Below, one piece after another: positions 876 to 25,231 of a stretch of 64,000 nt of DNA (position 1 is the stretch's first letter; every line of letters starts with the position of its first letter). The position numbers were made by a program, and so were the translations under genes. The notes beneath the pieces were generated by a model. The model made no database searches, was not told the DNA's origin, and saw nothing but the letters and a program-made list of their open reading frames with translations. Source of the stretch: Escherichia phage phiWec187; the sequence record LC739536.1. One strand, 5' to 3'.

Positions 876-1062
876 ACTTGGCTACACCATTAACTATAAT
901 GTGACCGCAAGACATAACTCCTAGCCAATGATCACCATTCTTTTTTAAACGTTTACCGTAAACATCACAGAAACCATTCTGTAATTCGGAAGCCTCATAA
1001 GAGGCTCCCTTTTCGAAAACGTCTTTGAAGTCAGAAATTAATCCAACACAAAGTAGTTTCAT
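844..1062 (-). CDS. hypothetical protein
   Basis: 72-aa ORF; start overlaps nrdB stop. Confidence 0.4.
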   Translation of the reverse strand: MKLLCVGLISDFKDVFEKGASYEASELQNGFCDVYGKRLKKNGDHWLGVMSCGHIIVNGVAKFEIIKGEKDD

Positions 1063-2147
1063 TAAAAGTCTAACTCCTCGTCATCACTTACATCTTTATT
1101 TGCTGAATTCAGTTTGTAAGCTGTAATTTGGATCTCCTGTGCTGCTGCTTGAATTTGATCTGGATTTAACCAAACATCCATCCAAGGCAGTGGACTTTTC
1201 TTCGGTGCACGGAATTTGTGTTTCATTTTCAGTCTGCGATAGATAGGCGCAGCATTGAAGTAAACCCAAAGTTTGAACAACTCTGCGTTACCACCAACGA
1301 TAATCCTTCCTTCACTAAACAGATAGTCACACCAATCTTCCTCTTGTCCAACTACCGTGTCAAGAATTTCTGTCAGAACGTAGATATTATCTTCGTATAC
1401 TTTTCTCCAGACAGGATCTTTCAGCAGTGCATCAATAATAGCATAATCCATTTTAACGTGCAATAGTTCATCCAACATAATTTTTTGAATGAGTTTAGCT
1501 GCACCTACAAACAGTTGCTGCTCTGCTAAGGCAAATGTTGCAGCAAAAGATGATATGAATTGAATGCCTTCCAGACCGATAAGTGCAATCATTCCTTTCA
1601 GAATCAGTAGACGAAGGTTATCATCCTTCTCAATCAGACCTAGAGCATACTTATGCCCTGCCTCTGCCAGATCACTCATTATCTCTTCAACTATACCCAT
1701 CCTCTGGAAGATTCTTTCGTTCTCCATAATCTGATCGATAACTTCATTTGGATTAGGGATACACTGACGAATAATTTCAGAATATGTCAAAGCGTGTAAA
1801 ACTTCCATTTCTGATTGCTTCATCATCATTGCACATGCTTCGTTGTTGCTTAAAAATGGTGCAAACAAAGTGATAATTGATTTAGCAAGTGAGTCATTTT
1901 CCCATTGGAAAGATAGGTTTTTGATCATAACATCATAGTTGCTTTTAGAACAAGCTACGAAATCTTTTCGTGTCTGATCTAAGTTTACTTCGTTTTCATC
2001 CCAATCTTGCTGTTTTTGTAGTTTGTACAGACGATGCATTTCTGGGTATGTTACATTAATAGAATCAAAAATACCTAACTGTTCTCCCAAAAATACAGGG
2101 TAGAAACCTTCTTTGTAAGTGTCGTTGTATAAATTAATCGCTGCCAT
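1062..2147 (-). CDS. nrdB: ribonucleotide reductase small subunit, class Ia
   Basis: 361 aa with R2-like length and acidic C-terminal tail ...DDEELDF; GGAGGA RBS upstream; adjacent to nrdA. Confidence 0.85.
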   Translation of the reverse strand: MAAINLYNDTYKEGFYPVFLGEQLGIFDSINVTYPEMHRLYKLQKQQDWDENEVNLDQTRKDFVACSKSNYDVMIKNLSFQWENDSLAKSIITLFAPFLSNNEACAMMMKQSEMEVLHALTYSEIIRQCIPNPNEVIDQIMENERIFQRMGIVEEIMSDLAEAGHKYALGLIEKDDNLRLLILKGMIALIGLEGIQFISSFAATFALAEQQLFVGAAKLIQKIMLDELLHVKMDYAIIDALLKDPVWRKVYEDNIYVLTEILDTVVGQEEDWCDYLFSEGRIIVGGNAELFKLWVYFNAAPIYRRLKMKHKFRAPKKSPLPWMDVWLNPDQIQAAAQEIQITAYKLNSANKDVSDDEELDF

Positions 2148-2510: not shown

Positions 2511-4775
2511 TTACATTTTACAGGCGCTACACCCCTCGTCTTCAGAATCTTCTTGAGCGAGTGAGGATGCCGATTTTGTTCTGCTATTTAGATAGTACAA
2601 AGATTTACCACCAAGTTTTGCAAACTGAAGGATATATTGCATTTCTGATTTAATGGATAAACGACCACCTTCCATCTTAGAGTAGTCAATCCACTTATCA
2701 CATGATGCACCTTGATCTAAGAATTTAGTCAACAGGCCATATGCTTCAGCCATATCTTTATCTGGTGTATCCCAAGCCGATTGGTAAATATCTTTTAGTT
2801 TATCGTAGTCTGGCACAATAAACAGAACATTACCCTTTTGGCTTTGTTTATAAACTATAGTATCACGTACAGGATACACAGAGTTAGTCGTATTACTTAC
2901 AAGACTACTGGACTCATTTGGAGCAATAGCTGCTAATACGCTATTTCGGATACCACCTTGTGCAATGATATCTTGTCGTAAACCTTCCCAATCCATTTTA
3001 AGTTTAAAATTGCCAATATCGTCTACAGCTTTAGCGTAGGTATCAATAGGCAACCATCCTTCAGGCCATTTGGTTTTATGCATCCATTCTGCATTACCTT
3101 TCTCTTTTGCCAAACGAAGAGAAGCTCTTGCTAACCAATAATAATGTCTTTCTGCTAATTCGTGAATTAGTTTTTTGCCGTAAGGATCTGAATAAGTAAC
3201 AAAATTACTTGCCAGATAATGTGCAAGGTTTGTAATACCTACACCGATAGACCTACGTGCTTTAGCAGTGATTTCGTTATGTTTAAACGGATACTGCATT
3301 GTTTCAATAACATTATCAATAGTCAGAACGGTATAATATGCAACATCTTCATATTCTTCTGGTGTAACACGACCAGCTACAATAGAAGACAGGAAGCATA
3401 ATGCCAATTCTTGATCTTCTGTATTCTCACCTGTGAAAAGATCAGTCATATTGTGAAATGCTTTCGTAGGTAAGAAAATTTCTTGGCACAAGTTTGACTG
3501 GTAAATAACATCCTTAAACGGAGTATGCTTATTAGCATTATCCGCAAAGAACATATAAATACGTCCTGTCTCTGCTCTTTGTGTAATAATTTCTGCCAGA
3601 AGATCTCGTGCTTTTACAAACTTCTTCTTAATTCGTTTGCGACTAACTTTTTCATATACTTCTTCAAACTCTTCCTCGCTTTTATAAAGCGCCTCATAGA
3701 GTTCTGGTGCTTCGTCATAACTGACTAGCATCCAATCTTTACCTTTTGCTGCACGGCGCAGGAAAGCATTGTTTACTACAATAGAGTAATCAAGTTTATC
3801 TACTCGTTTTTCACTAACAGTAGTTGGGTTTTTCAAACGTACCAGATCTTCAAAATCAGGTTCTAGTATTGTAAACGTTACTGTTGCACTTCCACCACGA
3901 CTTGCTTGTTTTGATGCTCCAACACTTGTCTCCATCCATTTCAGATATGGTAAAAGACCACCGTGAACGATACGGTTGTTCTTAACACCTTGTCCTGTGG
4001 CACGGGTTTGAAGGTTAACACCAATACCTGCATTATTCAATGTATATTCATGCGCAAGATAGTTAGCAATTGCTAAAGATTCTGCTGTATCGTCTGCTCT
4101 AAACAGACAACAAGAAGCACTACCTTTAATCTTAGTACGCAAAGTTGTTAAATAAGGCGATGGTAAATTAATCTTAAGATCACTTACGTAGGTATATAGA
4201 CGTTTAATGTCTTCTACTCTGCGGTCTTTTGGTTGGATTTCCATTACCTTCATTGCTACACCAATGAATAAAAACTGTGGTGATTCAAAAACAACATCAT
4301 TGATCGCATCTTTCACAAGATACTTATCAACCATCTGGCGCAGTACGGAATAACCATAAGTTAGGTTTTTATCGTGATTGACAATCTTACCAATCTCAAT
4401 AATTTCTTCTTCTGTATAATCCATTTTCCCCCAATAGCCTTTACTTACAGACATATTGTAGAAATCCAGGAGGGAGGGGATATTGTGATATCCCCCATGA
4501 GCCTGTTTATAGATCATACCAAGAAGTAACCGACCTGCCATATCACTATATGCCTGATCTTTCTTATCAATACATGCTGCTATCATAGCTTTATGTAAAT
4601 CACGAGTAGGCACACCGTCGTAACAACGTTTAACAGCTTCGAGTTCGATTTCAGACCAATTTAATTTACCAGCAGCAAACTCTGACCATTTACGAAGTTT
4701 TTCTGGATTAAATTCTTCTTTCTTGCCGTTTGTTTTTGTTACATAACGGATAGATTTGCTTAGATACTGAGTCAC
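2511..4775 (-). CDS. nrdA: ribonucleotide reductase large subunit, class Ia
   Basis: 754 aa; N-terminal ATP-cone-like segment; NxCxE-like NLCQEI; C-terminal cysteine pair CSACKM. Confidence 0.9.
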   Translation of the reverse strand: MTQYLSKSIRYVTKTNGKKEEFNPEKLRKWSEFAAGKLNWSEIELEAVKRCYDGVPTRDLHKAMIAACIDKKDQAYSDMAGRLLLGMIYKQAHGGYHNIPSLLDFYNMSVSKGYWGKMDYTEEEIIEIGKIVNHDKNLTYGYSVLRQMVDKYLVKDAINDVVFESPQFLFIGVAMKVMEIQPKDRRVEDIKRLYTYVSDLKINLPSPYLTTLRTKIKGSASCCLFRADDTAESLAIANYLAHEYTLNNAGIGVNLQTRATGQGVKNNRIVHGGLLPYLKWMETSVGASKQASRGGSATVTFTILEPDFEDLVRLKNPTTVSEKRVDKLDYSIVVNNAFLRRAAKGKDWMLVSYDEAPELYEALYKSEEEFEEVYEKVSRKRIKKKFVKARDLLAEIITQRAETGRIYMFFADNANKHTPFKDVIYQSNLCQEIFLPTKAFHNMTDLFTGENTEDQELALCFLSSIVAGRVTPEEYEDVAYYTVLTIDNVIETMQYPFKHNEITAKARRSIGVGITNLAHYLASNFVTYSDPYGKKLIHELAERHYYWLARASLRLAKEKGNAEWMHKTKWPEGWLPIDTYAKAVDDIGNFKLKMDWEGLRQDIIAQGGIRNSVLAAIAPNESSSLVSNTTNSVYPVRDTIVYKQSQKGNVLFIVPDYDKLKDIYQSAWDTPDKDMAEAYGLLTKFLDQGASCDKWIDYSKMEGGRLSIKSEMQYILQFAKLGGKSLYYLNSRTKSASSLAQEDSEDEGCSACKM

Positions 4776-4786: not shown

Positions 4787-5047
4787 TTAATTGTGCATGT
4801 TTAGAACATCTACATCATAACCGCCACGCATCTCGTTATATAAGCCATTTGCGTATAGAAAACCTTCAAAATGATCTATACCTTCAAAACCTTTTGCCTT
4901 TGCTTTGCGGTCTGCTTCTTGTCTTTTTGGTGATAATCTTTTAGATGTATCAAGGATAACTGTTACATTGCAACCTAATGTTTCATCAAAATAGACTTCA
5001 ATTTCACAGCCTTCATATTTATTACTTTCTGTCATTTGGCCTCTCAA
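4787..5047 (-). CDS. hypothetical protein
   Basis: 86-aa ORF downstream of nrdA. Confidence 0.45.
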   Translation of the reverse strand: MRGQMTESNKYEGCEIEVYFDETLGCNVTVILDTSKRLSPKRQEADRKAKAKGFEGIDHFEGFLYANGLYNEMRGGYDVDVLNMHN

Positions 5048-5458
5048 TTAGAATTCAGAATCATCATCTCGTGATGGATCATGTTCATTTCCGAAGTCTT
5101 CCATTTTGATATGAGAGCTACCCCAACCTGTAAAATCTTCTTCTCCAAAGTGCAAAATATCTACACCTTGATAGATTCGCTTATATTTATAGTCTTGTCG
5201 AACTGGGAAAGTATACAATGTAGTATTTGCAAACACCACACGTCGATTGTTGTTACTACGAATATTAACACCACGTTCTACTGTATAATGTCCATCGGTA
5301 GACATACCAAGCATTACTAATGCTGCTCGCAATGTGGTGTTATGATACTCGTGAGGAATTTTTCCTCCATGCTTTTTAGCCATTTCTTTCCAGATCGGTG
5401 TAGCCTTAATGGTAGACATACTTACGGTCGCCCAAATGGTTGTATTAATTAGTGACAT
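5048..5458 (-). CDS. hypothetical protein with acidic C-terminal tail
   Basis: 136 aa ending ...SRDDDSEF; own promoter and RBS upstream. Confidence 0.45.
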   Translation of the reverse strand: MSLINTTIWATVSMSTIKATPIWKEMAKKHGGKIPHEYHNTTLRAALVMLGMSTDGHYTVERGVNIRSNNNRRVVFANTTLYTFPVRQDYKYKRIYQGVDILHFGEEDFTGWGSSHIKMEDFGNEHDPSRDDDSEF

Positions 5459-5509
5459 AAATTCTCCTTCTCTCTTTTAAGGAGAGCATAGCTCTCCTAA
5501 CGTTAGCCT

Positions 5510-5538
5510 ATACTACACGAATCTCAATTAAAAGTCAA
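5510..5538 (-). promoter_or_regulatory. sigma70-like promoter on minus strand
   Basis: Minus strand TTGACT-N17-TAGTAT, then 5' UTR hairpin and GAAGGAG RBS. Confidence 0.45.
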
Positions 5539-5555
5539 CTATAATTTTAAGTTGA

Positions 5556-6527
5556 TCACCATTTTGTATGGTTCGTCAAAAGTTGACGATGTTGAATCCA
5601 ACCACAGAAGTTTCCACTCCACAAACGATGTTTACGATCCATATGTGTAATACCTTCTTCCCAAGAGGAAGGGAACGGAGGAATATTAATACCACCTTTC
5701 TGTTGTTTTAATCCTGACAAATCCATTTCTTTCATTGGCGTTGCCTGGTGTTCAAACGGGGATGCATGTACCTTTTGTCCAGACAGCAAACGAGAATAGA
5801 TATCCAATGCTTTATCTTTAGTATCATTCAACTTACGATAACTTACCTGAGCGCAACAAGAAGCTGAAATAGCTTTTGCTTCATCTTCTGTCAACATTTT
5901 CTCGTTGGAGAAGGTTTCACCCAAGAAATAACGGATCATACCAGTTTCTGGATCTCGATCACGATTAACGTAAGGTGTATGCCATTCTCCTGGGAAAAGA
6001 AGATATGGTTCAGAAGATTCATACAGTTTTTTAATTTCTTTAGCAAGAGCCTCAATAGTAGGATCTGCATCAGCATCTACGCGCAACCACAAGAAGTTTT
6101 CTAGTTCTGTAGTGGTTACTACAGTCTTCATACGCTGAAATGGTTCTAGTAGGCGGTTTGCAACCTGTTTATGATAACCAGCAAGGGCAAACTCTTCTGC
6201 AAAACGTGCAGCACTTAGTGCAGCCAAGTCCCACCATTCTTTTGCAGTATAACCTGCATCAATCAGGGCATCATGATCTGTGCCTTTATCTTGCATACCT
6301 GGTTGGTTAGCACCAAAACGATAAGGACGTGCTGGAGATTGCCGTACCATTTCAATCAGGGTTTTAACAGGGATAGCTCGACTTGATGCGGCATTACGAG
6401 AAAACAAACGATGCGTCATCAATTCAGAGTGAATGATTCGAGGATATTCAAGTTCAAAGGTAACAATATCCTTACCTTCAGATGTTTGAGAGTGTGCAAT
6501 AATTTTTGCTGAAATAGAATCTGTCAT
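5556..6527 (-). CDS. thyX: putative flavin-dependent thymidylate synthase (ThyX-like)
   Basis: Segment THRLFSRNAASSR resembles the ThyX RHR-x7-S motif; sits in nucleotide-metabolism cluster. Confidence 0.5.
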   Translation of the reverse strand: MTDSISAKIIAHSQTSEGKDIVTFELEYPRIIHSELMTHRLFSRNAASSRAIPVKTLIEMVRQSPARPYRFGANQPGMQDKGTDHDALIDAGYTAKEWWDLAALSAARFAEEFALAGYHKQVANRLLEPFQRMKTVVTTTELENFLWLRVDADADPTIEALAKEIKKLYESSEPYLLFPGEWHTPYVNRDRDPETGMIRYFLGETFSNEKMLTEDEAKAISASCCAQVSYRKLNDTKDKALDIYSRLLSGQKVHASPFEHQATPMKEMDLSGLKQQKGGINIPPFPSSWEEGITHMDRKHRLWSGNFCGWIQHRQLLTNHTKW

Positions 6528-6536
6528 TATTTCTCC

Positions 6537-7127
6537 TTAAGGTAGTAAAATACTTTCAATTTCTTCCCACTGATTATCTAAACCAGTGATAATTACATTA
6601 GGAAGTTTCTTTAACTCTTCCAAGTATGGATCTTCGTAAATAGTGTTGAAATATATTTTCAACGTTTCATCTGGAAATAGGACAAGATTTTCAGCCCTAT
6701 CGTCAATAGTTACGTCGCAAGGTAATAAGTATTTTTCTTTTGTTGCGAAAAAGCCATTACCAGATGTTCTACTAAAGTCCACTTTATCTAAAGATCGTGT
6801 TACGTGTCTATATTTAGAACTAAGGTGTCCACCCTTAGTGTGGCTTGCTATAGATATATTAGCTCCATTTGCAATTATACGATGAACAACATCTGTACTA
6901 TTAGGTACTACTCCCATAGTATCATATAGATGTTGGTTATCCCAAAAAGAGTAAGGATCTACACCAAATTGCTTTTTAAAATCAGGAAAATATTTCGTAA
7001 TATCATAATGCACAGTCTTATGTGCCTTATCAAATTTGATATTAGATCTACTTACCGCATTTAACCAATTTAACCATTCTATATCCGCAGGAGCTATTAC
7101 TAAATCCCAATCACATACTAGACGCAT
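6537..7127 (-). CDS. putative HAD-family 5'(3')-deoxyribonucleotidase (start at internal ATG)
   Basis: From M39 the N-terminus reads MRLVCDWDLV (DxDxV); later LPCDVTIDDR; track start 7241 overlaps tdk by about 130 nt. Confidence 0.4.
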   Translation of the reverse strand: MRLVCDWDLVIAPADIEWLNWLNAVSRSNIKFDKAHKTVHYDITKYFPDFKKQFGVDPYSFWDNQHLYDTMGVVPNSTDVVHRIIANGANISIASHTKGGHLSSKYRHVTRSLDKVDFSRTSGNGFFATKEKYLLPCDVTIDDRAENLVLFPDETLKIYFNTIYEDPYLEELKKLPNVIITGLDNQWEEIESILLP

Positions 7128-7674
7128 TATTTCTCCTGTTATAACATTTTCTACACATTGTTTCGTAAATGTCTTCTCCCCCAATAACAATCTGTTCTTT
7201 AGAGTCGATAAGTCTAGCATTAAAAATAGCCTTTCTTCCACATTTACAAATGCTTTTCAATTCTGTAATTGAATCTGCTATGGCTAATAACCGTTCAGAA
7301 CCTTCAAACAATTCTGTAGCAAAATCTGTTTTAAGTCCATAGCAGAATACAGGAATATCGTAATTATCTACCACATCTCCAAGAATGTCAACCATATCTT
7401 TAGTTAGGAATTGTGATTCATCCACAAATACTGCATCTACTGGATTTTCTTTAAGCTGTGTATAAATTTCCAGCATATCTTCTTTTGTTTTAACTGGTTT
7501 TGCTTCCTCTTTAATACCTATCCTAGAAGCAATAGCACAACCAGATCTGGTATCTAAAGCCGAAGTTAAAAGAAGAACTTTCATATTTCTTTCTTTATAG
7601 TTCCAAGCTGTTTGTAAAAGATGTGTGCTTTTACCACTGTTCATTGGACTATATCGGAAATAAAGTTTAGCCAT
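7111..7674 (-). CDS. tdk: thymidine kinase
   Basis: P-loop SPMNSGKST, VDESQF and C-terminal zinc-binding cysteines. Confidence 0.85.
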   Translation of the reverse strand: MAKLYFRYSPMNSGKSTHLLQTAWNYKERNMKVLLLTSALDTRSGCAIASRIGIKEEAKPVKTKEDMLEIYTQLKENPVDAVFVDESQFLTKDMVDILGDVVDNYDIPVFCYGLKTDFATELFEGSERLLAIADSITELKSICKCGRKAIFNARLIDSKEQIVIGGEDIYETMCRKCYNRRNNASSM

Positions 7675-7719
7675 ATTTTCTCCTCTAACGCTCCCATTTG
7701 TGGGAGCGATAATACTGTA

Positions 7720-8295
7720 TTATTTCTCTTCGTCAAGAAGAATTTTTACTATTTGTTTTCTTCGCTTACTTACTGTACTTTCTGGTGAAATTCCGCGCTT
7801 CGTTAGCCAATTTTTATCCTTTTTAGACTGGCATAAAGCTATCGCTTCTTTCTCCGCTTTTGCTTCCCTGAATGTCATATCGTGCTTGTCAGCATAAGCC
7901 AGGATAGCGTTACACTGCTTACAAACTACACGCAGGTCGTCTTCTGTTACATACAATAGGCGTAAAACAAAACTTGGGATATCTTCATAACAGGTTAATG
8001 TACCTGCTGCATTAATATGGTCTACTTGAAAGTCTTTCATACCTCCTGTATATCCACACAATTCACATTTACAATTCCAAACCTGTTTCGGTTTGCCTGT
8101 TTTCTTATCTAAAACTACATTGCCATCTTTATCCAACCTATCGGCTTTAAATCGTACAGATTGGATCTTTTTTATCTTATTCGGGTGTCTCACCCATGCT
8201 TTCCTTAAGCAACCCCTTAAATATGTATAAAAGGCTGCTTGAGTTTTCCAAGGTGTTCCATCTCCCCAAATAACTTTAGGTTCTTTATTTTCCAA
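7720..8295 (-). CDS. HNH-family endonuclease
   Basis: CKCELCGY...DHINAAG and CKQCN arrangement typical of HNH nucleases. Confidence 0.5.
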   Translation of the reverse strand: MENKEPKVIWGDGTPWKTQAAFYTYLRGCLRKAWVRHPNKIKKIQSVRFKADRLDKDGNVVLDKKTGKPKQVWNCKCELCGYTGGMKDFQVDHINAAGTLTCYEDIPSFVLRLLYVTEDDLRVVCKQCNAILAYADKHDMTFREAKAEKEAIALCQSKKDKNWLTKRGISPESTVSKRRKQIVKILLDEEK

Positions 8296-11276: not shown

Positions 11277-12161
11277 TTATTTTTGAATAGTTGACTTAAT
11301 AAGGTCTTGCATAATACCACGGATTTCATTAAAGCACAGAAGAACAGATGCTTCAAAAGATCCTTCTTCATCGTTAAAGTATTTAGGGAATTTAATACCA
11401 CTCAACTTAAATTCTTTATCAACAATAAAGTTAACGAAACCGTCATATTCCAGGCCAATGGCAACAACGTGCTTACCATCTTCCATAAGTTCTACTGCAC
11501 GAGATTCATAAAGGGATTCTTTACTCCATACAACCACACCTTCCGAATCTTCAAGTTTAATATAATTACCAAGGGTCAGTCGTTCAGCCTCATGTTCTTC
11601 TAAGATGGTATCAAAACCTTTAATAATGGCTTCTTCGTGTACACTAAACGGCAGGACTGGGAAAGTACCCAACACCCCACGAAGAAACACAGCAATATCT
11701 TCACTAATTTTCTTAGTACCATTAAGAACGTAGGTAATACTGTTTTCAGTGTCTACAACAACATAGTTATAGAAATCATCTGCCTCTGTCTCTGGGAGCA
11801 GAGAAAACACGATATCAGCCTCAATTGCTTTTTTACTTTCTTTGTCCAGGAAGAATTCTTTAGTAGGGTTTGCAGCAATAAACTCTTGTTCCATCTCCTG
11901 GAGTTTTTCATTAAGAATGCGTTTAACTTTTTTCTTGTTAACTTTCTTAACAGATTGCCCTACTTTAATAACCTCTAAACCAGAGAACACTTTTACATAG
12001 GAACCATCATCTTCAAAACGAACAAGACCAATGGTATGTGCTTGTTGACCCTGTGCCACAACAAAATCCAGCGGTTTGTCTGTTACTGTGTTCAGTGCGG
12101 AAATAGACAGACCATCACCAGAAATCAGGGTTACGCAAGATTTGAAATTTTTAGCAAACAT
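11277..12161 (-). CDS. hypothetical protein
   Basis: 294-aa ORF; weak N-terminal resemblance MFAKNF to RdgC-type proteins, not relied on. Confidence 0.4.
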   Translation of the reverse strand: MFAKNFKSCVTLISGDGLSISALNTVTDKPLDFVVAQGQQAHTIGLVRFEDDGSYVKVFSGLEVIKVGQSVKKVNKKKVKRILNEKLQEMEQEFIAANPTKEFFLDKESKKAIEADIVFSLLPETEADDFYNYVVVDTENSITYVLNGTKKISEDIAVFLRGVLGTFPVLPFSVHEEAIIKGFDTILEEHEAERLTLGNYIKLEDSEGVVVWSKESLYESRAVELMEDGKHVVAIGLEYDGFVNFIVDKEFKLSGIKFPKYFNDEEGSFEASVLLCFNEIRGIMQDLIKSTIQK

Positions 12162-12171
12162 AGTTTTCTCC

Positions 12172-12450
12172 TCAAATAATAACTACAAAATATTTTACAC
12201 CATCATATTCGACAATATGATCAGGATATTTAAATCCTTTATAAGATTTACCAAACAGACTAACAGCCTCATTAGCTTTGTTTTGCGGATTACTCAGCCA
12301 CTGTTCTTCTGTGTAAAACTTAAACTCTGTTCTCTTACCTTCTTTTTCTAAACCAACAATTTCCTGTGTGATATCTTCAATACCTGCATTCTTCAAGGAT
12401 TTGATTACCTGACGCAAACCGTGTTTAAAGATATCTTCTGCTGTTAACAT
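12172..12450 (-). CDS. hypothetical protein
   Basis: 92-aa ORF. Confidence 0.45.
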   Translation of the reverse strand: MLTAEDIFKHGLRQVIKSLKNAGIEDITQEIVGLEKEGKRTEFKFYTEEQWLSNPQNKANEAVSLFGKSYKGFKYPDHIVEYDGVKYFVVII

Positions 12451-12460
12451 AATACCTCCA

Positions 12461-12480
12461 ATAAGCCCCGAAGGGGCTTT
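12461..12480 (-). other. GC stem-loop in intergenic spacer
   Basis: AGCCCCGAAGGGGCT; no T-run on minus strand. Confidence 0.3.
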
Positions 12481-12485
12481 ATTTC

Positions 12486-13208
12486 TTAAGCAATGATTGC
12501 TGCGATATTAGGTTTAACAAAGGTAGATGGTTTCATAATTTTACCTTTGTCATCAAAGAATACGTACACCTTTTGAACTTCGTTATATACAGCATGTACC
12601 CCAGTATAAGAACCTTCTGCACGATCTTTGCTTCGCATCTCGATAGCATCGCACTCTTTTTCAAGAGCTTCAATAATATCCTTAGTTTCCCAAATAGCTA
12701 GGAGTTGCTTCTTGGTAGGATACTTGGACTCATTGCTATTCAACACTTCACGCATAACCTTCTTCTCGTTATAAACAGAACGCACCAAAGTATCTCGTGC
12801 CATACGGGTAAGTGTAAGAGACATTAAGGCAAATTGCAAGTCATTTTCTACCATTTTATCAAATTCAATGATAACATCGTAAATGTTCTCTGCCAGAACA
12901 TCTCCTGTTGGCATTTCCAGAGCTTTATCAACACCTTCTTTACCAAAGAACATAAACGCCAGGTAGGATGCTACCACAAAAATATCTGCTGCTGCATCAA
13001 GTAATTCAACGTGATCATTTTCCTGTGCTGCTGCTTGAAACTCTTTAAGTTCTTCTCGTACAAAAGAAAGTTGAGCTTCAAACATCTCTTGAGTAAATTC
13101 TGGAGTTACTCCACCGCGTGCCTTAGCATTCCAAGCAACAATTTGATCGGCAGCTTTGATAAAGAAGCTATTGTCCACTTTTACTTGTTTGAAAAAATTC
13201 TCGATCAT
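12486..13208 (-). CDS. putative MazG-like nucleotide pyrophosphohydrolase
   Basis: REELKEFQAAAQENDHVELLDAAADIFVV resembles the MazG EExxE...D helix motif. Confidence 0.4.
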   Translation of the reverse strand: MIENFFKQVKVDNSFFIKAADQIVAWNAKARGGVTPEFTQEMFEAQLSFVREELKEFQAAAQENDHVELLDAAADIFVVASYLAFMFFGKEGVDKALEMPTGDVLAENIYDVIIEFDKMVENDLQFALMSLTLTRMARDTLVRSVYNEKKVMREVLNSNESKYPTKKQLLAIWETKDIIEALEKECDAIEMRSKDRAEGSYTGVHAVYNEVQKVYVFFDDKGKIMKPSTFVKPNIAAIIA

Positions 13209-13217
13209 TGTTTCTCC

Positions 13218-13424
13218 TTATTTAAAATATTGTTCTAACAAAACACTAATGCGAACTACCGATTCGCCCATATACGCCCCAGCACAGAGGAAAACAACAA
13301 ATCTACAAAAATTGCAGTACCATTTGTCCACTGGAAACGAGGCTAACATTATAATTGCAATAGCAATTAACATCATAAGAACTGTTACTAATACCATATT
13401 ACCTCTTACTCTGCTGGTTCCCAA
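13218..13424 (-). CDS. small membrane protein
   Basis: 68 aa with two hydrophobic helices. Confidence 0.4.
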   Translation of the reverse strand: MGTSRVRGNMVLVTVLMMLIAIAIIMLASFPVDKWYCNFCRFVVFLCAGAYMGESVVRISVLLEQYFK

Positions 13425-14569
13425 GTACCTGGAATCATCTTACGTAAACGGACACCTGTTGGTTTCGTAGGTATTCCACCATCGGAAAACTCTTCATACT
13501 CAATCTCAACAAATTTACCAATTAACATTTCGGCATTTTCTGCTTTACGATAGTTAATGGTTTCATCTGAATCCTTACGCATCAGGAATTCGACTACTTT
13601 ACCATTTTCCATCTCTCCTGTCAATACCCCGTCACCATTTTTATCACGCTTTGCACTTACCACTTTAACTTCAAGCGTCTGACGTGGTTTACGTTTAATA
13701 ACATCATAAGAACGTTTATCGAATTCGTAAACACCTTTTGCGTTACGATACACCACACCTTCCGCTTTCTCGCGTAGGGCTTTTGCATAGAAAGCCTCAA
13801 ACTGTTCTTGGTTTTCAATGTACTCTGTATGTACTACACAAATAAGTTCATCTAAACCTTTATCTTCAACAACTTCTTTTAGAGCAGCCAAAACTTGAAC
13901 CCTCTTCTCAAATGGTACAGATGCCACAGGAACATCATATACATAGTATTTAAGAAGCGGTGTGTTAGCATTATGCTTTTTCCACGCACTATTAATTTGT
14001 TGAAGGCTAAGGACACCCAAGCCAGCAAAAACTTCACCGTCAAGAGGATGACCAACTACTTCTTTAATGAAGGTTGGAATTTCTTCCCAGTGAGGTGGAA
14101 GTTTATATACCTCCCCAGCTTTAGATAAACATTCACCTTGCATGTTAATCATTGAACGTAGACCATTCAATTTATATTGTGCATAACCTGGGAACAAAAC
14201 ACGGTCAGCATAATCTTTATAATCCTGACATTTCATGGGTGTGGAAGGAACATGGTTTTCAGCTTCCTCTTTTGTTTTATAATACCCATTCTTAAGTTGC
14301 TTTGTCCATTTGGCAAGAGCTTCTATTTCAGCTTGTTCTTCTGCTGTTGTTTCATTTGAGCGACCAATATTTTTAGGTTCTGCCGTATAAGATTTGCTAG
14401 TGATCTTTCCACCTAATTGACCATGAGCAACAGTTACAACACTACCTTCGGTATAGACTGACCACTGTCTAATTTTACCTGTAGAAGTTTTACCATACAA
14501 TGTAGGATTAGTTTGTTTCATCTTTAACCTCCAGTTGCGAAAGAACCCATTTAGCCATTTCAATTTCAC
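13406..14569 (-). CDS. ATP-dependent polynucleotide ligase (nucleotidyltransferase superfamily)
   Basis: Motif I KLNGLR, motif III LDGEVF, motif IV EGVVYR, motif V DVIKRK in correct order and spacing. Confidence 0.55.
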   Translation of the reverse strand: MKLKWLNGFFRNWRLKMKQTNPTLYGKTSTGKIRQWSVYTEGSVVTVAHGQLGGKITSKSYTAEPKNIGRSNETTAEEQAEIEALAKWTKQLKNGYYKTKEEAENHVPSTPMKCQDYKDYADRVLFPGYAQYKLNGLRSMINMQGECLSKAGEVYKLPPHWEEIPTFIKEVVGHPLDGEVFAGLGVLSLQQINSAWKKHNANTPLLKYYVYDVPVASVPFEKRVQVLAALKEVVEDKGLDELICVVHTEYIENQEQFEAFYAKALREKAEGVVYRNAKGVYEFDKRSYDVIKRKPRQTLEVKVVSAKRDKNGDGVLTGEMENGKVVEFLMRKDSDETINYRKAENAEMLIGKFVEIEYEEFSDGGIPTKPTGVRLRKMIPGTWEPAE

Positions 14570-14711
14570 CGTGTAGTCTGCCTAGTTCATAGGCATCATC
14601 AATATTACCACCAGTGTAATCATCCACCATAAAGTAAGGATCTTCACTACTGTTAGGCGCGTTTGCAATTCTCGTTAGTTCTTCAATAAATGTCATAGTT
14701 AACCTTACCAA
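14508..14711 (-). CDS. hypothetical protein
   Basis: 67-aa ORF overlapping neighbours. Confidence 0.3.
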   Translation of the reverse strand: MVRLTMTFIEELTRIANAPNSSEDPYFMVDDYTGGNIDDAYELGRLHGEIEMAKWVLSQLEVKDETN

Positions 14712-14929
14712 TTATACACAAGAGTTTGAATTTCTTCCATCAAATCTTCAAGATCTGTATCAACATATTCAGAAGATGTTGCCATAAAGTATGTAATCAT
14801 TATAAACCCTTCCGAAGAAAGGGCATCAAGGATATCATTAAACATATCTTCCATTTCAGTATTCTCACCAAATGAGAATAACATTTGTTGGTCTTCGCTT
14901 ACACCTTTAACATAGATGGCTGTACTCAT
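14705..14929 (-). CDS. hypothetical protein
   Basis: 74-aa acidic ORF. Confidence 0.4.
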   Translation of the reverse strand: MSTAIYVKGVSEDQQMLFSFGENTEMEDMFNDILDALSSEGFIMITYFMATSSEYVDTDLEDLMEEIQTLVYNW

Positions 14930-14932
14930 ATA

Positions 14933-15253
14933 TTAATCCTTAAGACGTTCATTTAAATCTGCAATAACATCACCTAAATCTTCACATTCCAGTGTTAACT
15001 CTGAAACTTGTCCACTCAAATAACAAACTTCTTCATTTAGATCTGAAATAATGTTTTCTAATGAATCTACTTGGTCATCATATGAACGTTTTGTTTCTTC
15101 AAGTTCTTCCGTAAGATCATTAATCAAACGGAGCAAAGATAAGATATAACCGTCTCCTGTCTCGTTCCTCCACTCACTTCCGTAGCGATAAATAATAATT
15201 TCACCATTATCAACTACTGTAAAATACTTACCTTCACCAGAATAAATTTCCAT
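14933..15253 (-). CDS. hypothetical protein
   Basis: 106-aa ORF. Confidence 0.45.
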   Translation of the reverse strand: MEIYSGEGKYFTVVDNGEIIIYRYGSEWRNETGDGYILSLLRLINDLTEELEETKRSYDDQVDSLENIISDLNEEVCYLSGQVSELTLECEDLGDVIADLNERLKD

Positions 15254-20047: not shown

Positions 20048-20941
20048 ATGAAAGTTAGTATTCTACATGGTGTTGACTGTTATGTTACTGATGTAGACGT
20101 TAAAGTCTTTACATTCTCTGGTGGAGAACAACATGTTCAACTAGATACGAATCTATCAGGTTTCAATCATGCTACAGACAGAATCTTACTCTCTTTAGAA
20201 GTAAGATCTGCTAAAGACTTGATGACTTTGGTTATGACTAAGAATGCATTGGACAATATGCTATATCATAAACCATATTGTGTTGATTTACTCATGCTGT
20301 ATGTACCGTATGCACGACAAGACAGAGTGTGTGAGCCTGGGGAAGCATTCGGAGTTAAAGCCTTTGCTTCTATAATTAATTCATTAAATTTCTCACGTGT
20401 TATCGTTGCTGATCCACATAGTGATGTTACTCCAGCAGTGTTTGACAGACTCTGTGTAATACCTCAAGAAGAGATTGCTTACGAAACTTTAAAGTGGAAG
20501 TTACGTATGGAGAATTTTGCTCTTGTTAGTCCTGATGGTGGTGCTCTTAAGAAAATATTTAAATTATCTAAGAAAATGTCTTTAGATGTGTTCTGTGCAG
20601 AGAAGGTTAGAGATACTGCAACAGGTGCTATTGTTCGTACAGACATTTCTGTACAGGATTTCAATAAGCGTAACCTGATGATCGTAGATGATATCTGTGA
20701 CGGCGGTAGAACTTTTATTGAATTGGCTAAAGTGCTACGTGCTCGTAACGCAGGTAAGATTGAGTTATATGTTACACACGGTATCTTTTCTAAAGGTCTT
20801 AAAGAGTTAAGTGAGCACTTTGACTGCATTCATTCTCTTAATGTGTGGGAAGATAACATCCAAGAAGATTCCGGTGTTCTTGTTAAGAATCAGTCAGATT
20901 TGCAACAACAAATTGTATCTCCATACGTGTGGAATTTTTAA
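20048..20941 (+). CDS. prs: ribose-phosphate pyrophosphokinase family protein (Prs-like)
   Basis: PYARQDR, DPHSD, VSPDGG and DDICDGGRT signatures; consensus promoter and AAGGAG RBS upstream. Confidence 0.8.
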   Translation: MKVSILHGVDCYVTDVDVKVFTFSGGEQHVQLDTNLSGFNHATDRILLSLEVRSAKDLMTLVMTKNALDNMLYHKPYCVDLLMLYVPYARQDRVCEPGEAFGVKAFASIINSLNFSRVIVADPHSDVTPAVFDRLCVIPQEEIAYETLKWKLRMENFALVSPDGGALKKIFKLSKKMSLDVFCAEKVRDTATGAIVRTDISVQDFNKRNLMIVDDICDGGRTFIELAKVLRARNAGKIELYVTHGIFSKGLKELSEHFDCIHSLNVWEDNIQEDSGVLVKNQSDLQQQIVSPYVWNF

Positions 20942-20951
20942 ATAATAAGTG

Positions 20952-20980
20952 TTGACAATAGGGAGTATGCTTAGTAAGAT
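20952..20980 (+). promoter_or_regulatory. sigma70-like promoter for NadV-like gene
   Basis: TTGACA-N17-TAAGAT; -10 lies inside inverted repeat GGGAGTAT...ATACTCCC. Confidence 0.5.
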
Positions 20981-21012
20981 ACTCCCACACTAACAAACAA
21001 GGAGACATAACT

Positions 21013-22746
21013 ATGAATATTTTTGCACCTTTTGCTACTGATTGGTATAAACCTGGTCACAAGCAGATGTACAACCAAAATACAAAACTCATTTTCTCTA
21101 ATTTAACTCCTCGTAATGATAAAAACTTTGCACACTATGCAGATCGTGAAGCACGTGGTGTAATTGTTTTAGGTATTCGTCGAGCAGTTACTGATGCTCT
21201 TGTAACTATGTGGGATGGCTTCTTTAAAATGTCTCGTAGTGCAGCAGTAAATAAATTTTATCGTATGTCTAAGAATGCATTAGGTGCTTCTGCTCCTTCT
21301 GCTGAATGTTGGGGAGAATTGCACGATTTAGGTTATCTTCCGCTAGAAGTTCGATCTCTGCCAGAAGGTGTTTTGTGTCCTATTGGTGTTCCTGTGTTTA
21401 CTGTGCATAACACTTTAGAAAAATTCTTTTGGTTAACTAACTATGTGGAAACACTCTTGTCAGATGAAACTTGGAAGACAATGACTAATGCCACAGCAGC
21501 TTTTCAGTATAAGCGTATCGCTATGGCGTATGCGATGGCAACGTGTGATAACATTGATCACGTTAATTTCCAGTGTCATGACTTTAGCCTACGTGGTTTA
21601 AGCAATATCGAAGATGGTTATAAGAGTGGTATCGCTCATTTGGCATCTTTCACAGGTACAGATAATATTCTGGCTATTGAAACTGTGCATGATTACTATG
21701 GTATTGATTATGATCAGTTTGTTGCAGGTTCTATTCCGGCAACAGAACATTCAGTAGCAACGACTAACATTGGAGCTATTGTTGAAGATCTGAAGAAACA
21801 TTTCCCACATCTTAAAGATGATGTTGATGGGCTTCGTTATGTAGCAGAGAAAGAGTTTCTTCGCCGCTATATTGAAGAAATTGTTCCAGAAGGTTTTTGT
21901 TCATATGTAGCAGATTCTTATGATTACTGGGCTGTCTTGACTCGCATTCTGGTAGAATTGAAAGAGTCCATTATGTCACGAAATGGTCGTCTTGTTATTC
22001 GTCCAGACTCAGGAGATCCGGTTAAAGTTGTTGCAGGATACAATGTTGAATCTTTTGATAACTATGAAGACCTTTTAAATAATGGTATTGCTACAGCCAC
22101 TGAAGTAGTACATTTGGCTGATGTTAATAAGTATTACAATGTTCTTCAGGATTGCAGTGTTGCTGATTGTATTGATGAAACTTATGAGATTCCTTATTGT
22201 GAAGCAGTAGGTTCTATTCAAATCCTTTGGGAAGTGTTTGGTGGTACTATCAACCGAAAAGGCTACAAGGTTCTTGATCAGCACATCGGTATGATTTATG
22301 GTGATTCTATTACTGTTGAACGAGAACACGAGATCTTACGCCGACTGAAGAAGAAAGGTTTTGCAGCTTCCAATATTGTATTTGGTGTTGGTAGTTATAC
22401 TTATCAGTTCAATACACGAGATACTTTTGGTTTTGCTGTTAAAGCAACAGGTAGTATCATCGGTGAACACGAAATTTTGGTAAGTAAGGAGCCTAAAACT
22501 GATCCTGGTAAACGCTCTGCAAAAGGTTTTATTAAGGTTGTTAAGGATACAAATGGTAAACTTTCTCTTGTGGATAATCTTTCTTTTAAAGATATCCAAG
22601 ATGAAGACAATGAGTTAAAAGTTATCTTCAGGGATGGTACGGTTATTACACCACAAGTAGAAGGACGTGATGAAACATTTACTGATATCCGTAACCGTGT
22701 TGATGTAGAGGTTCTTCGTACTATGGGAACCATCCAGGTTGACTAA
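21013..22746 (+). CDS. nadV: nicotinamide phosphoribosyltransferase family protein (NadV/NAMPT-like)
   Basis: 577 aa; N-terminus ATDWYKPGHKQMY is NAMPT-like; own promoter. Confidence 0.75.
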   Translation: MNIFAPFATDWYKPGHKQMYNQNTKLIFSNLTPRNDKNFAHYADREARGVIVLGIRRAVTDALVTMWDGFFKMSRSAAVNKFYRMSKNALGASAPSAECWGELHDLGYLPLEVRSLPEGVLCPIGVPVFTVHNTLEKFFWLTNYVETLLSDETWKTMTNATAAFQYKRIAMAYAMATCDNIDHVNFQCHDFSLRGLSNIEDGYKSGIAHLASFTGTDNILAIETVHDYYGIDYDQFVAGSIPATEHSVATTNIGAIVEDLKKHFPHLKDDVDGLRYVAEKEFLRRYIEEIVPEGFCSYVADSYDYWAVLTRILVELKESIMSRNGRLVIRPDSGDPVKVVAGYNVESFDNYEDLLNNGIATATEVVHLADVNKYYNVLQDCSVADCIDETYEIPYCEAVGSIQILWEVFGGTINRKGYKVLDQHIGMIYGDSITVEREHEILRRLKKKGFAASNIVFGVGSYTYQFNTRDTFGFAVKATGSIIGEHEILVSKEPKTDPGKRSAKGFIKVVKDTNGKLSLVDNLSFKDIQDEDNELKVIFRDGTVITPQVEGRDETFTDIRNRVDVEVLRTMGTIQVD

Positions 22747-23534: not shown

Positions 23535-23610
23535 GGTTCCATAGCTCACTGACGAGAGCGCACACCTCATAAGTGTCGAGGGCAGGGATTGTAACCCTGG
23601 GGAACCACCA
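23535..23610 (+). tRNA. tRNA-Met or Ile2 (anticodon CAT)
   Basis: Hand-folded cloverleaf; anticodon loop CTCATAA; encoded CCA. Confidence 0.55.
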
Positions 23611-23641
23611 TTTAAAAGGAGGTGCTATGCATCTCCTATAT

Positions 23642-23727
23642 GCAAGTGTGGTGGAATTGGTGATACACATTGTGCTTAAAACGCAACGCTTAAATGCTTG
23701 AGGGTTCGAATCCCTCCACTTGCACCA
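23642..23727 (+). tRNA. tRNA-Leu (anticodon TAA), long variable arm
   Basis: 7-bp acceptor, loop CTTAAAA, T-loop GGTTCGAATCC, encoded CCA. Confidence 0.6.
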
Positions 23728-23743
23728 AAACCTAAAAATATCT

Positions 23744-23772
23744 TGACATTTACTTAGTTTTTTGTTATAGTT
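23744..23772 (+). promoter_or_regulatory. sigma70-like promoter within tRNA cluster
   Basis: TTGACA-N17-TATAGT, 10 nt before tRNA at 23783. Confidence 0.5.
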
Positions 23773-23782
23773 ACTATGAAAA

Positions 23783-23864
23783 CGGGGTGTATCTCACCTG
23801 ACTTCTAATCAGGCGTTAACCGAGTAATTGGAGTATGCAGGTTCGAATCCTGTCACCCCGGCCA
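23783..23864 (+). tRNA. atypical tRNA-like gene (possible anticodon TCT)
   Basis: Perfect acceptor and canonical T-arm; stem-loop CCTGA-CTTCTAA-TCAGG; D-arm region too short. Confidence 0.4.
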
Positions 23865-23882
23865 AAAAGTTTTAAAAACTAC

Positions 23883-23911
23883 TTGACAAGCAAGATAGTT
23901 TTATGTTAGAT
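23883..23911 (+). promoter_or_regulatory. sigma70-like promoter within tRNA cluster
   Basis: TTGACA-N17-TTAGAT upstream of tRNA-Ser at 23928. Confidence 0.45.
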
Positions 23912-23927
23912 TTAAAGTATGGTAACA

Positions 23928-24017
23928 GGAAGGTAGGGCGCAGCGGTGCGCAACCAGGTTTGAACCCTGGCCCATTGTAGCGATACGGTGATGGTTCGAC
24001 TCCATTATCTTCCTCCA
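23928..24017 (+). tRNA. tRNA-Ser (anticodon TGA)
   Basis: Anticodon loop TTTGAAC, long variable arm, encoded CCA. Confidence 0.6.
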
Positions 24018-24196
24018 AATTCTCTTAGGAGCTTTATGAATTATAAAACTATTGGACAGGTTGTTACCTGAGTTAAGATTGTAAATAATAAAGTTGTTTA
24101 TGAGTATTCTAATCTTCAACAATCCGAAGATGGTAAGAATATTCGTATGGTAAAAACAGAACAAAAAGATTCCGGTTGTTTTGAATAATTAAAAAC

Positions 24197-24282
24197 GGTA
24201 GATTGGTGAAATGGTAGCCACAACAGTTTGCTAAACTGTCGTCGGAAACGGCGTGTAGGTTCAAGTCCTACATCTACCGCCA
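24197..24282 (+). tRNA. tRNA-Ser (anticodon GCT)
   Basis: Anticodon loop TTGCTAA, variable-arm hairpin, T-loop GGTTCAAGTCC, CCA. Confidence 0.6.
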
Positions 24283-24416
24283 AGTTATCTTTAATGTAGC
24301 TTGTAATCTTACTTTAGCAGAGTAAACTTTCGGCAGATGGTGGCAGCCATTTTACCGATACCCCAATACTTCATAGCTAAGTGCCGCAAACACTGGCTAT
24401 TTTAAAGATAATTTAT

Positions 24417-24492
24417 ACATCGTTAGCTTAGTTGGTAGAGCAAGGTGCTTTTAACTCCAAGGTCGAAGGTTCGAATCCTTCACGATGTACCA
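24417..24492 (+). tRNA. tRNA-Lys (anticodon TTT), tentative
   Basis: D-arm GCTTAGTTGGTAGAGC; loop CTTTTAA with one stem mismatch; CCA. Confidence 0.5.
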
Positions 24493-24497
24493 AACAC

Positions 24498-24584
24498 GTA
24501 GGTATCGCATAGCGGCAATTGCTGGAGACTGTAAATCTCCTGCCCTTCGGGGCTTCGTTGGTTCGAGTCCAACTACCTGCACCA
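24498..24584 (+). tRNA. tRNA-Tyr (anticodon GTA)
   Basis: Anticodon arm GGAGA-CTGTAAA-TCTCC; variable-arm hairpin; CCA. Confidence 0.65.
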
Positions 24585-24591
24585 AATTAAA

Positions 24592-24676
24592 GATGGATTG
24601 GCCTAGTGGTTGGGCGACGGACTGTTAATCCGTGAACGAAAGTTCTAGCAAGGTTCAAATCCTTGATCCATCGCCA
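24592..24676 (+). tRNA. tRNA with anticodon GTT (Asn) and unusually long variable arm
   Basis: Anticodon arm ACGGA-CTGTTAA-TCCGT; 15-nt variable hairpin; T-loop GGTTCAAATCC; CCA. Confidence 0.5.
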
Positions 24677-24680
24677 AATA

Positions 24681-24749
24681 GTGCTTGTAGAGTTAATAGA
24701 AACCTCTAGAATTTTCTAGAATTGTAGGTATCAAATCCTACCAAGCAAA
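24681..24749 (+). ncRNA. degenerate tRNA-like element
   Basis: 6-bp acceptor-like pairing and T-arm-like hairpin but anticodon loop of 6 or 8 nt and no CCA. Confidence 0.25.
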
Positions 24750-24755
24750 TATTTT

Positions 24756-24830: not shown

Positions 24831-24852
24831 ATTTAACTCTAAAGGAGTGTAT

Positions 24853-25176: not shown

Positions 25177-25190
25177 ATATCAAAAGCCTC

Positions 25191-25220: not shown

Positions 25221-25231
25221 AATATTGTTAA

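Follow-up and report, generated by a model that had tools for sequence, protein, structure and literature searches.

A rearranged ThyX-like protein of Escherichia phage phiWec187 belongs to a large phage clade and is a likely flavin-dependent thymidylate synthase

Our analysis concerns a 64,000-nucleotide stretch of Escherichia phage phiWec187 (sequence record LC739536.1; hereafter, the window) and, within it, a minus-strand open reading frame (ORF) encoding a protein of 323 amino acids (aa). A first, sequence-only reading of the window had proposed that this protein is a thymidylate synthase of the ThyX rather than the ThyA type and that it is paired with a deoxyribonucleotidase of the haloacid dehalogenase (HAD) superfamily. 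We found that the 323-aa protein has the ThyX fold and a Thy1 domain. At the same time it is not a canonical ThyX, as it falls short of the equivalog cut-off of the family, has lost both the first Arg of the ThyX motif and a Tyr lid, and carries its chain segments in a rearranged order. Judging from its sequence, its structural model and its genomic context, it is likely the phage's own flavin-dependent thymidylate synthase, which would use dUMP, methylenetetrahydrofolate and NAD(P)H to produce dTMP, and a member of a rearranged phage clade. The gene call as such is already public: in GenBank, records of phi92-like phages annotate the 323-aa ORF as 'putative thymidylate synthase', its upstream neighbor as 'hypothetical protein' and the next gene as 'thymidine kinase'. 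What is new here is its placement in a large, rearranged and apparently uncharacterized ThyX-like phage clade. The features of the gene are listed below, with equivalences given for ThyX of Thermotoga maritima or for canonical ThyX in general.

5556..6527, minus strand: ThyX-like coding sequence (CDS), 323 aa, from its ORF, ribosome-binding site (RBS), Pfam Thy1, PHROG_85, AlphaFold2 (AF2), Foldseek and hhalign
6375..6416, minus strand: variant ThyX motif, residues 38-51, T-H-R-L-F-S-R-N-A-A-S-S-R-A, equivalent by alignment to T. maritima R78-H79-R80...S88-G-R90-Y91
6003..6527, minus strand: ThyX-like N-terminal part, residues 1-175, equivalent to canonical ~54-212, from hhalign, the extent of the Pfam and TIGR matches and secondary structure
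5559..6002, minus strand: ThyX-like C-terminal part, residues 176-323, with the apparently relocated canonical ~6-66, from hhalign, a hidden Markov model (HMM) and conservation
5748..5768, minus strand: residues 254-260, H-A-S-P-F-E-H, equivalent to T. maritima H53-E-T-P-F-E-H59 of the flavin/folate-site segment, from alignment and conservation

The Pfam Thy1 family (PF02511) matched the protein at 37 bits against a gathering cut-off of 24.8 (E 3.9e-9), with the match confined to profile positions 59-186 on residues 22-170, while the match to the NCBIfam model TIGR02170 spans residues 22-175. Together, the two models cover approximately profile positions 59-190, leaving the first ~58 profile positions unmatched and the 150 C-terminal residues of the protein unexplained. 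PHROG_85, a 'thymidylate synthase' family, was matched at E 8.5e-109. The AF2 model, built with 28 homologues, reached a predicted local distance difference test score (pLDDT) of 82 and a predicted template modeling score (pTM) of 0.83, and a Foldseek search of the PDB with this model returned 140 matches at E <= 0.001. The 50 matches listed were all ThyX or PolB, at a probability of 1.00 and a template modeling (TM) score of ~0.45-0.56 on the target. Thus, the predicted ThyX fold is indeed present, and it is shared with canonical enzymes such as ThyX of T. maritima (TM0449; PDB 1O26 and 1KQ4), A674R of PBCV-1 (PDB 4FZB) and ThyX of Mycobacterium tuberculosis (Mtb), with a Foldseek probability of 1.00 and TM ~0.5 on the target. 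In BFVD, the significant named Foldseek matches were phage 'thymidylate synthases'. We also aligned the phage protein with a canonical ThyX profile composed of T. maritima ThyX and eight canonical phage ThyX sequences, which paired residues 14-184 with canonical 54-212 (hhalign probability 97%, E 8e-11). With the protein alone as query, phmmer had no PDB match at E <= 1, the 28-sequence profile found marginal ThyX matches only (E 0.6-1.2), and tblastn with T. maritima ThyX, the query sequence of which we checked to be identical to PDB 1kq4, did not find the gene even at E 10. No solved structure of any clade member was found in the PDB searches.

The absence of a ThyA-like protein from the window, likewise noted in the sequence-only reading, was confirmed. 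Searches by tblastn with E. coli ThyA, FolA and Dut and with T. maritima ThyX gave nothing better than E ~1 in the window or in the whole genome of the related phage muut, and a PROSITE-type ThyA signature pattern had no match in either sequence. On the basis of these empty searches of the window and of the complete muut genome, we rejected the explanation that a ThyA is encoded elsewhere. The muut annotation also contains no other thymidylate synthase and no dihydrofolate reductase (DHFR), dUTPase or dCMP/dCTP deaminase. The ThyA-type synthases of phages (T4 Td; the dUMP/dCMP hydroxymethylases) have the same expected role, namely dTMP for phage DNA, but their fold and mechanism are unrelated, and neither the window nor muut has a ThyA-like sequence, motif or DHFR partner. 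The assignment to the ThyX type thus stands on the fold, the Pfam Thy1 domain and the absence of any ThyA.

The phage protein differs from canonical ThyX in length (323 aa versus ~220 aa) and, above all, in the order of its segments. In canonical ThyX, ~40 residues lie between strands 1 and 2 and form two helices and the G-H53-x-T55-P-F-E58-H59 loop. In the secondary structure of the AF2 model, strands 6-14 and 20-29 are joined by only five residues; the N-terminal part (residues 1-175), which matches canonical ~54-212 (hhalign E 1.3e-11, 97%), begins with a short beta-hairpin and is devoid of the helical stretch that separates strands 1 and 2 in canonical ThyX. The flavin/folate-site segment is not found at its canonical place, but at residues 223-230 and 254-260, so that the canonical segment between strands 1 and 2 (~17-58) sits after the helical core. 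Specifically, SCCAQVSY at 223-230, followed by an Arg (S-C-C-A-Q-V-S229-Y230-R), compares with canonical R-A-A-R-V-S30-F, then a helix, and V-H254-A-S256-P-F-E259-H260 (253-260) compares with canonical G-H53-E-T55-P-F-E58-H59. To assess conservation, we aligned the protein with 120 representatives of 50%-identity clusters, drawn from 150 listed, and all conservation values below refer to these 121 sequences. H254 and S229 are conserved in 100%, H260 in 99%, S256 in 98% and E259 in 94%. When residues 176-323 were aligned with the canonical profile, 195-262 paired with canonical 8-66 (E 2.2e-5, probability 76%) and 297-321 with canonical 154-179, and the C-terminal part aligned with T. maritima ThyX alone at E 1.3e-4. 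An HMM of canonical residues 8-66 matched 65 of the 121 members, always at 71-84% of their length and never N-terminally, albeit with weak scores (median 6.5 bits, best 23 bits). The C-terminal part also holds a clade-specific W-H-x-P-Y at 182-186 and a conserved tail, WSGN...Q-x-R, at 303-314. The last 25 residues can be aligned in two ways, one to canonical W-F-R-H-R and the other, by hhalign, to strand 3 and the N163/R165 region. In the N-terminal part, canonical N163, R165 and H178 are replaced by Thr, Thr and Asp. By these comparisons, the flavin/folate-site segment, which is N-terminal in canonical ThyX, appears to have been relocated to a place after the helical core. We also considered the C-terminal part as an autonomous, degenerate second ThyX domain; residues 176-323 modeled alone reached only pLDDT 59 and pTM 0.42, which argues against this. 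The whole protein, in contrast, is modeled confidently, and the C-terminal part is probably a piece of one compact predicted fold rather than a domain of its own. A Foldseek search of the PDB with the model of residues 176-323 had no match at E <= 0.001.

The ThyX motif R-H-R-x7-S (cited in PMC2826268) had been recognized in the sequence-only reading with the exception of its first Arg. Residues 37-51 read MTHRLFSRNAASSRA, i.e. M37 followed by the motif listed above, and T38-H39-R40-x7-S48 is indeed an xHR-x7-S with Thr at the first-Arg position. The deviation is larger than had been noted, however, as the Tyr that follows S-x-R is Ala in the phage protein. The active-site residues map onto T. 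maritima ThyX as follows:

R78 is T38 (Thr in 116 of 121)
H79 is H39 (121 of 121)
R80 is R40 (96 of 121)
N85 is N45 (117 of 121)
S88 is S48 (120 of 121)
R90 is R50 (121 of 121)
Y91 is A51 (Ala in 121 of 121)
R147 is R125 (120 of 121; an equivalence resting on the match of the ARxxLP and NRLLEP motifs)
N169 is N144 (120 of 121)
R174 is R149 (121 of 121)

In addition, R30 (117 of 121) lies eight residues ahead of the motif, where Mtb R87 and Helicobacter pylori (Hp) R66 bind dUMP, and R314 is conserved in all 121 sequences. In Mtb ThyX, dUMP is held by R95, R199, R87, S105 and R107 (PMC6514825). The dUMP-binding Arg/Ser set of Mtb R87, S105, R107 and R199 and T. maritima R147 is present in the phage protein as R30, S48, R50, R149 and R125, along with H39-R40 of the RHR. 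Overall, what the protein shares with canonical ThyX beyond the fold and the Thy1 domain comprises the H-R of RHR, S-x-R, the ARxxLP Arg, the N169 and R174 equivalents, the H-x-S/T-P-F-E-H and VS[YF] segments, and its genomic company, with ribonucleotide reductase (RNR) present and no DHFR. The phage clade has extra invariant motifs of its own (QPGMQ, HKQ, WHxPY and the C-terminal Q-x-R). The first position of RHR is not universal even among canonical-type phage ThyX, since four of eight lack Arg there (Lys in three and Asp in one). All eight retain R-Y, and the Tyr after S-x-R is present in all nine canonical sequences aligned, which makes the change from Tyr to Ala the sharper discriminator. 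Apart from the first Arg, then, the residues that bind the nucleotide are retained, and no Tyr lid is left; each of these two losses characterizes the clade as a whole rather than this gene alone.

The clade is large and essentially phage-restricted. A search for its members yielded 4968 clusters (50% identity) at E <= 0.001 and 1492 at E <= 1e-30, and the clade is present in 1034 phage records, among them the phi92, phAPEC8, rV5, PVP-SE1, ICP1, PAK_P1, N4-like and phiCbK groups. A scan of 185,579 species genomes with two peptide patterns found a single locus, on a 60-kb contig of a Bacteroidota metagenome-assembled genome, which suggests that the clade is rare in cellular genomes, although both patterns are narrow and little more can be read from the scan. 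We also compared gene neighborhoods in six diverse phages. In phAPEC8, an rV5-like phage, ICP1 (gp193), a PAK_P1-like phage and the phiCbK-like phage CcrSwift, RNR genes are found within 1-3 kb of the clade gene. In CcrSwift it also directly follows a gene for a deoxynucleoside monophosphate (dNMP) kinase, and in an N4-like Klebsiella phage it is ~0.6 kb from a dCTP deaminase gene. None of the six neighborhoods contains genes typical of base hypermodification. It should be noted that some records split the ThyX-like gene into a pair of neighboring CDSs, both annotated 'thymidylate synthase', as in phage ECP26 (BFVD A0A4Y5TVX3 and A0A4Y5TVY4; 245 and 97 aa) and Pseudomonas phage TIETA (3495-4807; 966 and 345 nt); a frameshift, an error of sequencing or a true split of the gene could lie behind this.

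Insertions within the clade point to the same conserved residues. Fifteen of the 150 clade representatives (P0133, P0138, P0141, P0142, P0162, P0202, P0207, P0229, P0234, P0240, P0247, P0248, P0251, P0257 and P0261) are 520-680 aa long and carry insertions of ~170-340 aa, and five of the seven representatives scanned show Pfam intein-splicing domains, some with HNH, or LAGLIDADG_3 domains. The five insertion sites (H33|S34; after T-H-R at 40-42; S48|S49; after R149; and after H254, the last in six representatives) all fall inside the most conserved motifs, including the apparently relocated segment and the variant ThyX motif. Inteins favor functionally critical sites and conserved catalytic motifs.

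Several points weigh against a thymidylate synthase activity of the 323-aa protein. The protein scored above the Pfam Thy1 threshold but missed the equivalog cut-off of TIGR02170, which stands for the same function as characterized ThyX, by a wide margin (35.8 versus 87.9 bits). In solved ThyX structures the first Arg of RHR, here T38, touches the flavin ring and dUMP (PMC6514825). T. maritima Y91, here A51, is described, like S88, as strictly conserved and critical for activity (PMC11940539), and its Mtb counterpart Y108 is a lid over dUMP C5 and flavin N5 (PMC6514825). For the Arg that binds the FAD phosphate (Mtb R190, Hp R165) we could place no confident equivalent. Candidates are R314 and position 308 (5604-5606, minus strand). 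The latter is Lys or Arg in 75 of the 121 sequences, but phiWec187 and the phages nearest to it have Cys there, so that clade members may differ in their flavin site. The spatial equivalence of the C-terminal segment is proposed from sequence similarity only. Lastly, searches of the accessible literature found no experimental study of any clade member, whether by complementation, enzymology or structure; they likewise found no description of a ThyX permutation and none of DNA modification in the genus Justusliebigvirus, to which phiWec187 and its relatives belong.

The sequence-only reading had left open that the first-Arg substitution marks a ThyX-fold enzyme with a different substrate. The substitution is real, and an enzyme of altered chemistry might release 5-hydroxymethyl-dUMP or methylate another uracil or cytosine nucleotide, as PolB does with UMP. 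The loss of the Tyr lid would let water reach the exocyclic methylene, T38 (96%) and A51 (100%) replace residues that touch the substrate/flavin pair (PMC6514825, PMC11940539), the TIGR02170 shortfall fits as well, and relatives of thymidylate synthase, of the ThyA type in that instance, feed phage base modification (PMC8989533). PolB, the UMP/dUMP C5-methylase of polyoxin biosynthesis in Streptomyces cacaoi (PDB 4P5A), is among the best structural matches of the phage protein (E ~1e-4, TM 0.51-0.53 on the target) and demonstrates that the ThyX fold can take a different nucleotide. However, PolB itself has canonical length and order (239 aa; T. maritima ThyX finds it at E 3.7e-34), and the phage protein is no closer to it than to true ThyX. 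Moreover, neither the uracil-reading R149 nor the Arg/Ser set for the phosphate varies, the phage encodes no second thymidylate synthase, and the six diverse phages place RNR, dCTP deaminase and dNMP kinase genes alongside the clade gene in lieu of the kinases, transferases or other genes of hypermodification. The phi92-like and rV5-like (Vequintavirinae) phages, all of which bear the gene, are also described as 'exceptionally susceptible' to restriction-modification systems (PMC8594841), which speaks against a modification of pyrimidines for protection. As the invariant uracil-reading Arg, the dNTP-gene neighborhoods and the restriction sensitivity all favor synthesis of dTMP from dUMP, the evidence leans against a different substrate, and we regard altered chemistry as unlikely. 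A further reading, quite unlikely when taken as a whole, is that the clade, as a ThyX permuted by duplication and complementary loss, manages without the first Arg and Tyr lid on which canonical enzymes depend and could therefore run the flavin-methylene chemistry differently, which could involve another acid or lid residue, a dimer of pseudo-dimers with fewer active sites, or a non-methyl product (5-hydroxymethyl-dUMP) in some members. The loss of two residues deemed critical in canonical ThyX could also suggest a ThyX relic without catalytic activity that has kept nothing but nucleotide or flavin binding and serves, for instance, as a regulator or decoy. This is extremely improbable, because many polar residues are very strongly conserved over thousands of sequences (~10 positions at 100%), inteins target the conserved motifs and the linkage with dNTP-synthesis genes is persistent, a pattern that fits an enzyme under catalytic constraint.

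For the flavin-dependent thymidylate synthase that we favor, the C-terminal segment would fold back and complete a single ThyX-like active-site domain. Such a chain likely originated by tandem duplication followed by complementary deletion (permutation by duplication), with the hairpin at 188-201 and the tail W-S-G-N306...Q312-x-R314 as possible remnants of the second copy. Invariant residues specific to the clade would make up for the absence of the first Arg (T38) and of the Tyr lid (A51), and R/K44, the W-H183-x-P185-Y motif, G77-M78, Q312 and R314 are candidates for this role. Together with RNR, thymidine kinase and a dNMP phosphatase, the synthase would raise and balance the dTTP pool for a genome of 37% GC.

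The genes that accompany the ThyX-like gene in the window, all on the same strand, are consistent with such a role:

7111..7674, minus strand: thymidine kinase CDS, 187 aa (Pfam TK E 1.2e-54; PHROG_592)
6537..7127, minus strand: HAD-superfamily phosphatase CDS of the NT5C (5'(3')-deoxyribonucleotidase) family, 196 aa, from its motifs, start and RBS, and NT5C homologues
7104..7112, minus strand: HAD motif I, D6-W-D8 (nucleophile and general acid/base Asp), invariant in 22 homologues and aligned with D-M-D of human mitochondrial 5'(3')-deoxyribonucleotidase (mdN)
6699..6704, minus strand: HAD motif IV, D142-D143, invariant in 22 homologues and aligned with the DD of mdN ...LLIDDRP
5048..5458, minus strand: small conserved ORF, 136 aa, between the ThyX-like gene and nrdA (PHROG_15711 E 1.7e-89)
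4787..5047, minus strand: small conserved ORF, 86 aa (PHROG_15807 E 1.2e-56)
2511..4775, minus strand: NrdA, class I RNR large subunit CDS (Pfam Ribonuc_red_lgC E 7e-99)
1062..2147, minus strand: NrdB, RNR small subunit CDS (Pfam Ribonuc_red_sm E 3.3e-33)

On the coding strand, the thymidine kinase gene (tdk) and the HAD gene are located upstream of the ThyX-like gene, while the two small ORFs, nrdA and nrdB are downstream. The 136-aa and 86-aa ORFs have no Pfam or NCBIfam match; phAPEC8 has ORFs that agree with them in size and position, and the pair may be part of the nucleotide module. The ThyX-like ORF starts at an ATG with AAGGAGAAATAATG just 5' of it. For the HAD ORF the best start is the ATG at 7127, which follows GGAGAAATAATG and gives a 196-aa product, equal to the extent annotated in muut. 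This translation-start context, GGAGAAATAATG, is common to the ThyX-like and HAD genes (6528-6541 and 7128-7141, minus strand). The first 17 nt of the HAD gene overlap the end of the thymidine kinase gene, an arrangement suggesting that translation is coupled across tdk, the HAD gene and the ThyX-like gene.

The surrounding region (5000-8000) is 98.6-99.2% identical, over its full length, to the 25 best-matching phage records, and the annotated ones among them, such as Eryne, EmilieFrey, muut and outra, are phi92-like myoviruses that infect E. coli and have genomes of ~146 kb. These relatives are classified in the genus Justusliebigvirus, subfamily Stephanstirmvirinae, and phiWec187 is a phi92-like coliphage of this genus as well, with muut a near-identical phage at 99%. 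Four unannotated 146-kb records named 'Campylobacter phage' (A150, A145, C3 and A110a; host C. jejuni; MG065639.1, MG065645.1, MG065656.1 and MG065689.1) are 98.7% identical to this region over 3 kb and look like mislabeled or contaminant phi92-like coliphage.

The neighbor of the ThyX-like gene, at 6537-7127, encodes an NT5C-type HAD phosphatase by its sequence, in agreement with the earlier assignment to the 5'(3')-deoxyribonucleotidases from DxDxV and DD motifs. Within D6-W-D8-L-V, which fits D-x-D-x-[TV] and aligns with D-M-D-G-V of mdN, D6 and D8 are invariant in 22 homologues, as are K130, K132 and I141-D142-D143-R144 of motifs III and IV, the latter aligning with IDDR of mdN. The protein itself scored 23.0 bits with Pfam NT5C (PF06941), just below the cut-off of 24.8 (E 8e-5), while 19 of the 22 homologues matched NT5C at E <= 0.01 (best E 8e-13) and the only competing HAD family among them was a single weak HAD_2 match. 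Compared with the mammalian enzymes cdN and mdN (Pfam NT5C; PDB 1MH9), the HAD core is colinear over residues 2-145 with both Asp motifs, D-x-D and DD, in register, though sequence similarity is very low (the family profile reaches only E 0.7 against 1mh9 among PDB sequences). The family is small, with 26 clusters limited to phi92-, phAPEC8- and rV5-type contigs. A gene for a hypothetical protein, of matching length (~600 nt), lies just ahead of the ThyX-like gene in phAPEC8 and in the rV5-like phage, in one case with a 201-nt ORF between. The annotations of the ICP1, PAK_P1-like, N4-like and phiCbK-like phages show none next to their ThyX-like genes.

From its family and context, the HAD protein is likely to have dNMP substrates, and most likely it would dephosphorylate pyrimidine dNMPs and, with thymidine kinase, establish a substrate cycle on dTMP and dUMP. 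In mammals, cdN and mdN form a substrate cycle with thymidine kinase, and the deoxyribonucleotidase Dmp of phage T5 may be a functional analogue of the HAD protein. HAD substrate specificity is not readable from core motifs, and the shortfall from the NT5C cut-off, the weak match to mdN, the narrow distribution of the family and PHROG_420, which is matched as 'unknown function', would also suit a phosphatase that acts on something else, for instance on a ribonucleotide or on an intermediate (sugar phosphate or nucleotide sugar) of the phage's dTDP-sugar pathway. We consider this somewhat unlikely given the NT5C matches of most homologues, the full-length alignment with mdN with both Asp motifs in register, and the position of the gene, which overlaps the thymidine kinase gene and abuts that of the thymidylate synthase.

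Since the phage is without a recognizable dUTPase or dCMP/dCTP deaminase, dUMP for the favored reaction would be supplied by host enzymes. The window also encodes a MazG/PRA-PH-type nucleotide pyrophosphohydrolase (12486-13208, minus strand; Pfam PRA-PH E 3.2e-7), and this or host enzymes may provide a route to dUMP or sanitation of the pool. In muut, a dTDP-sugar operon (11740-15001) encodes a glucose-1-phosphate thymidylyltransferase, a 4,6-dehydratase, a 3,5-epimerase and a reductase. Seen from the ThyX-like gene, it lies ~1 kb past nrdB, just off the left end of the window, and has been described as putative dTDP glycosylation machinery (BASEL paper). Because this operon consumes dTTP, the thymidylate genes of phi92-like phages may serve sugar activation besides DNA synthesis, with the dTTP pool also feeding the dTDP-sugar pathway.

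Elsewhere in the window, a PRPP-synthetase-like gene and a gene of the nicotinamide/nicotinate phosphoribosyltransferase family (20048-22746, plus strand; Pfam NAPRTase E 2.5e-37) look like a phage NAD+ salvage module, and ARAGORN identified an array of 15 tRNA genes (23535-26453, plus strand). The coding strand switches at ~20 kb, and the GC skew reverses its sign there. Beyond ~20 kb the window has indels relative to phage muut, and genes there were re-derived from the ORFs of the window.

As a gene call, the ThyX-like gene is ordinary, as phages commonly carry ThyX, thymidine kinase and RNR together. The distinct ThyX variant to which it belongs is, however, among the commonest 'thymidylate synthases' of large Gram-negative phages. 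If active, it would show by natural example which ThyX residues the enzyme really needs, with relevance to ThyX as an antibacterial target. Activity would also give a firm basis to the annotation of thousands of phage genes, whereas these annotations would be wrong if the protein is not a dTMP synthase.

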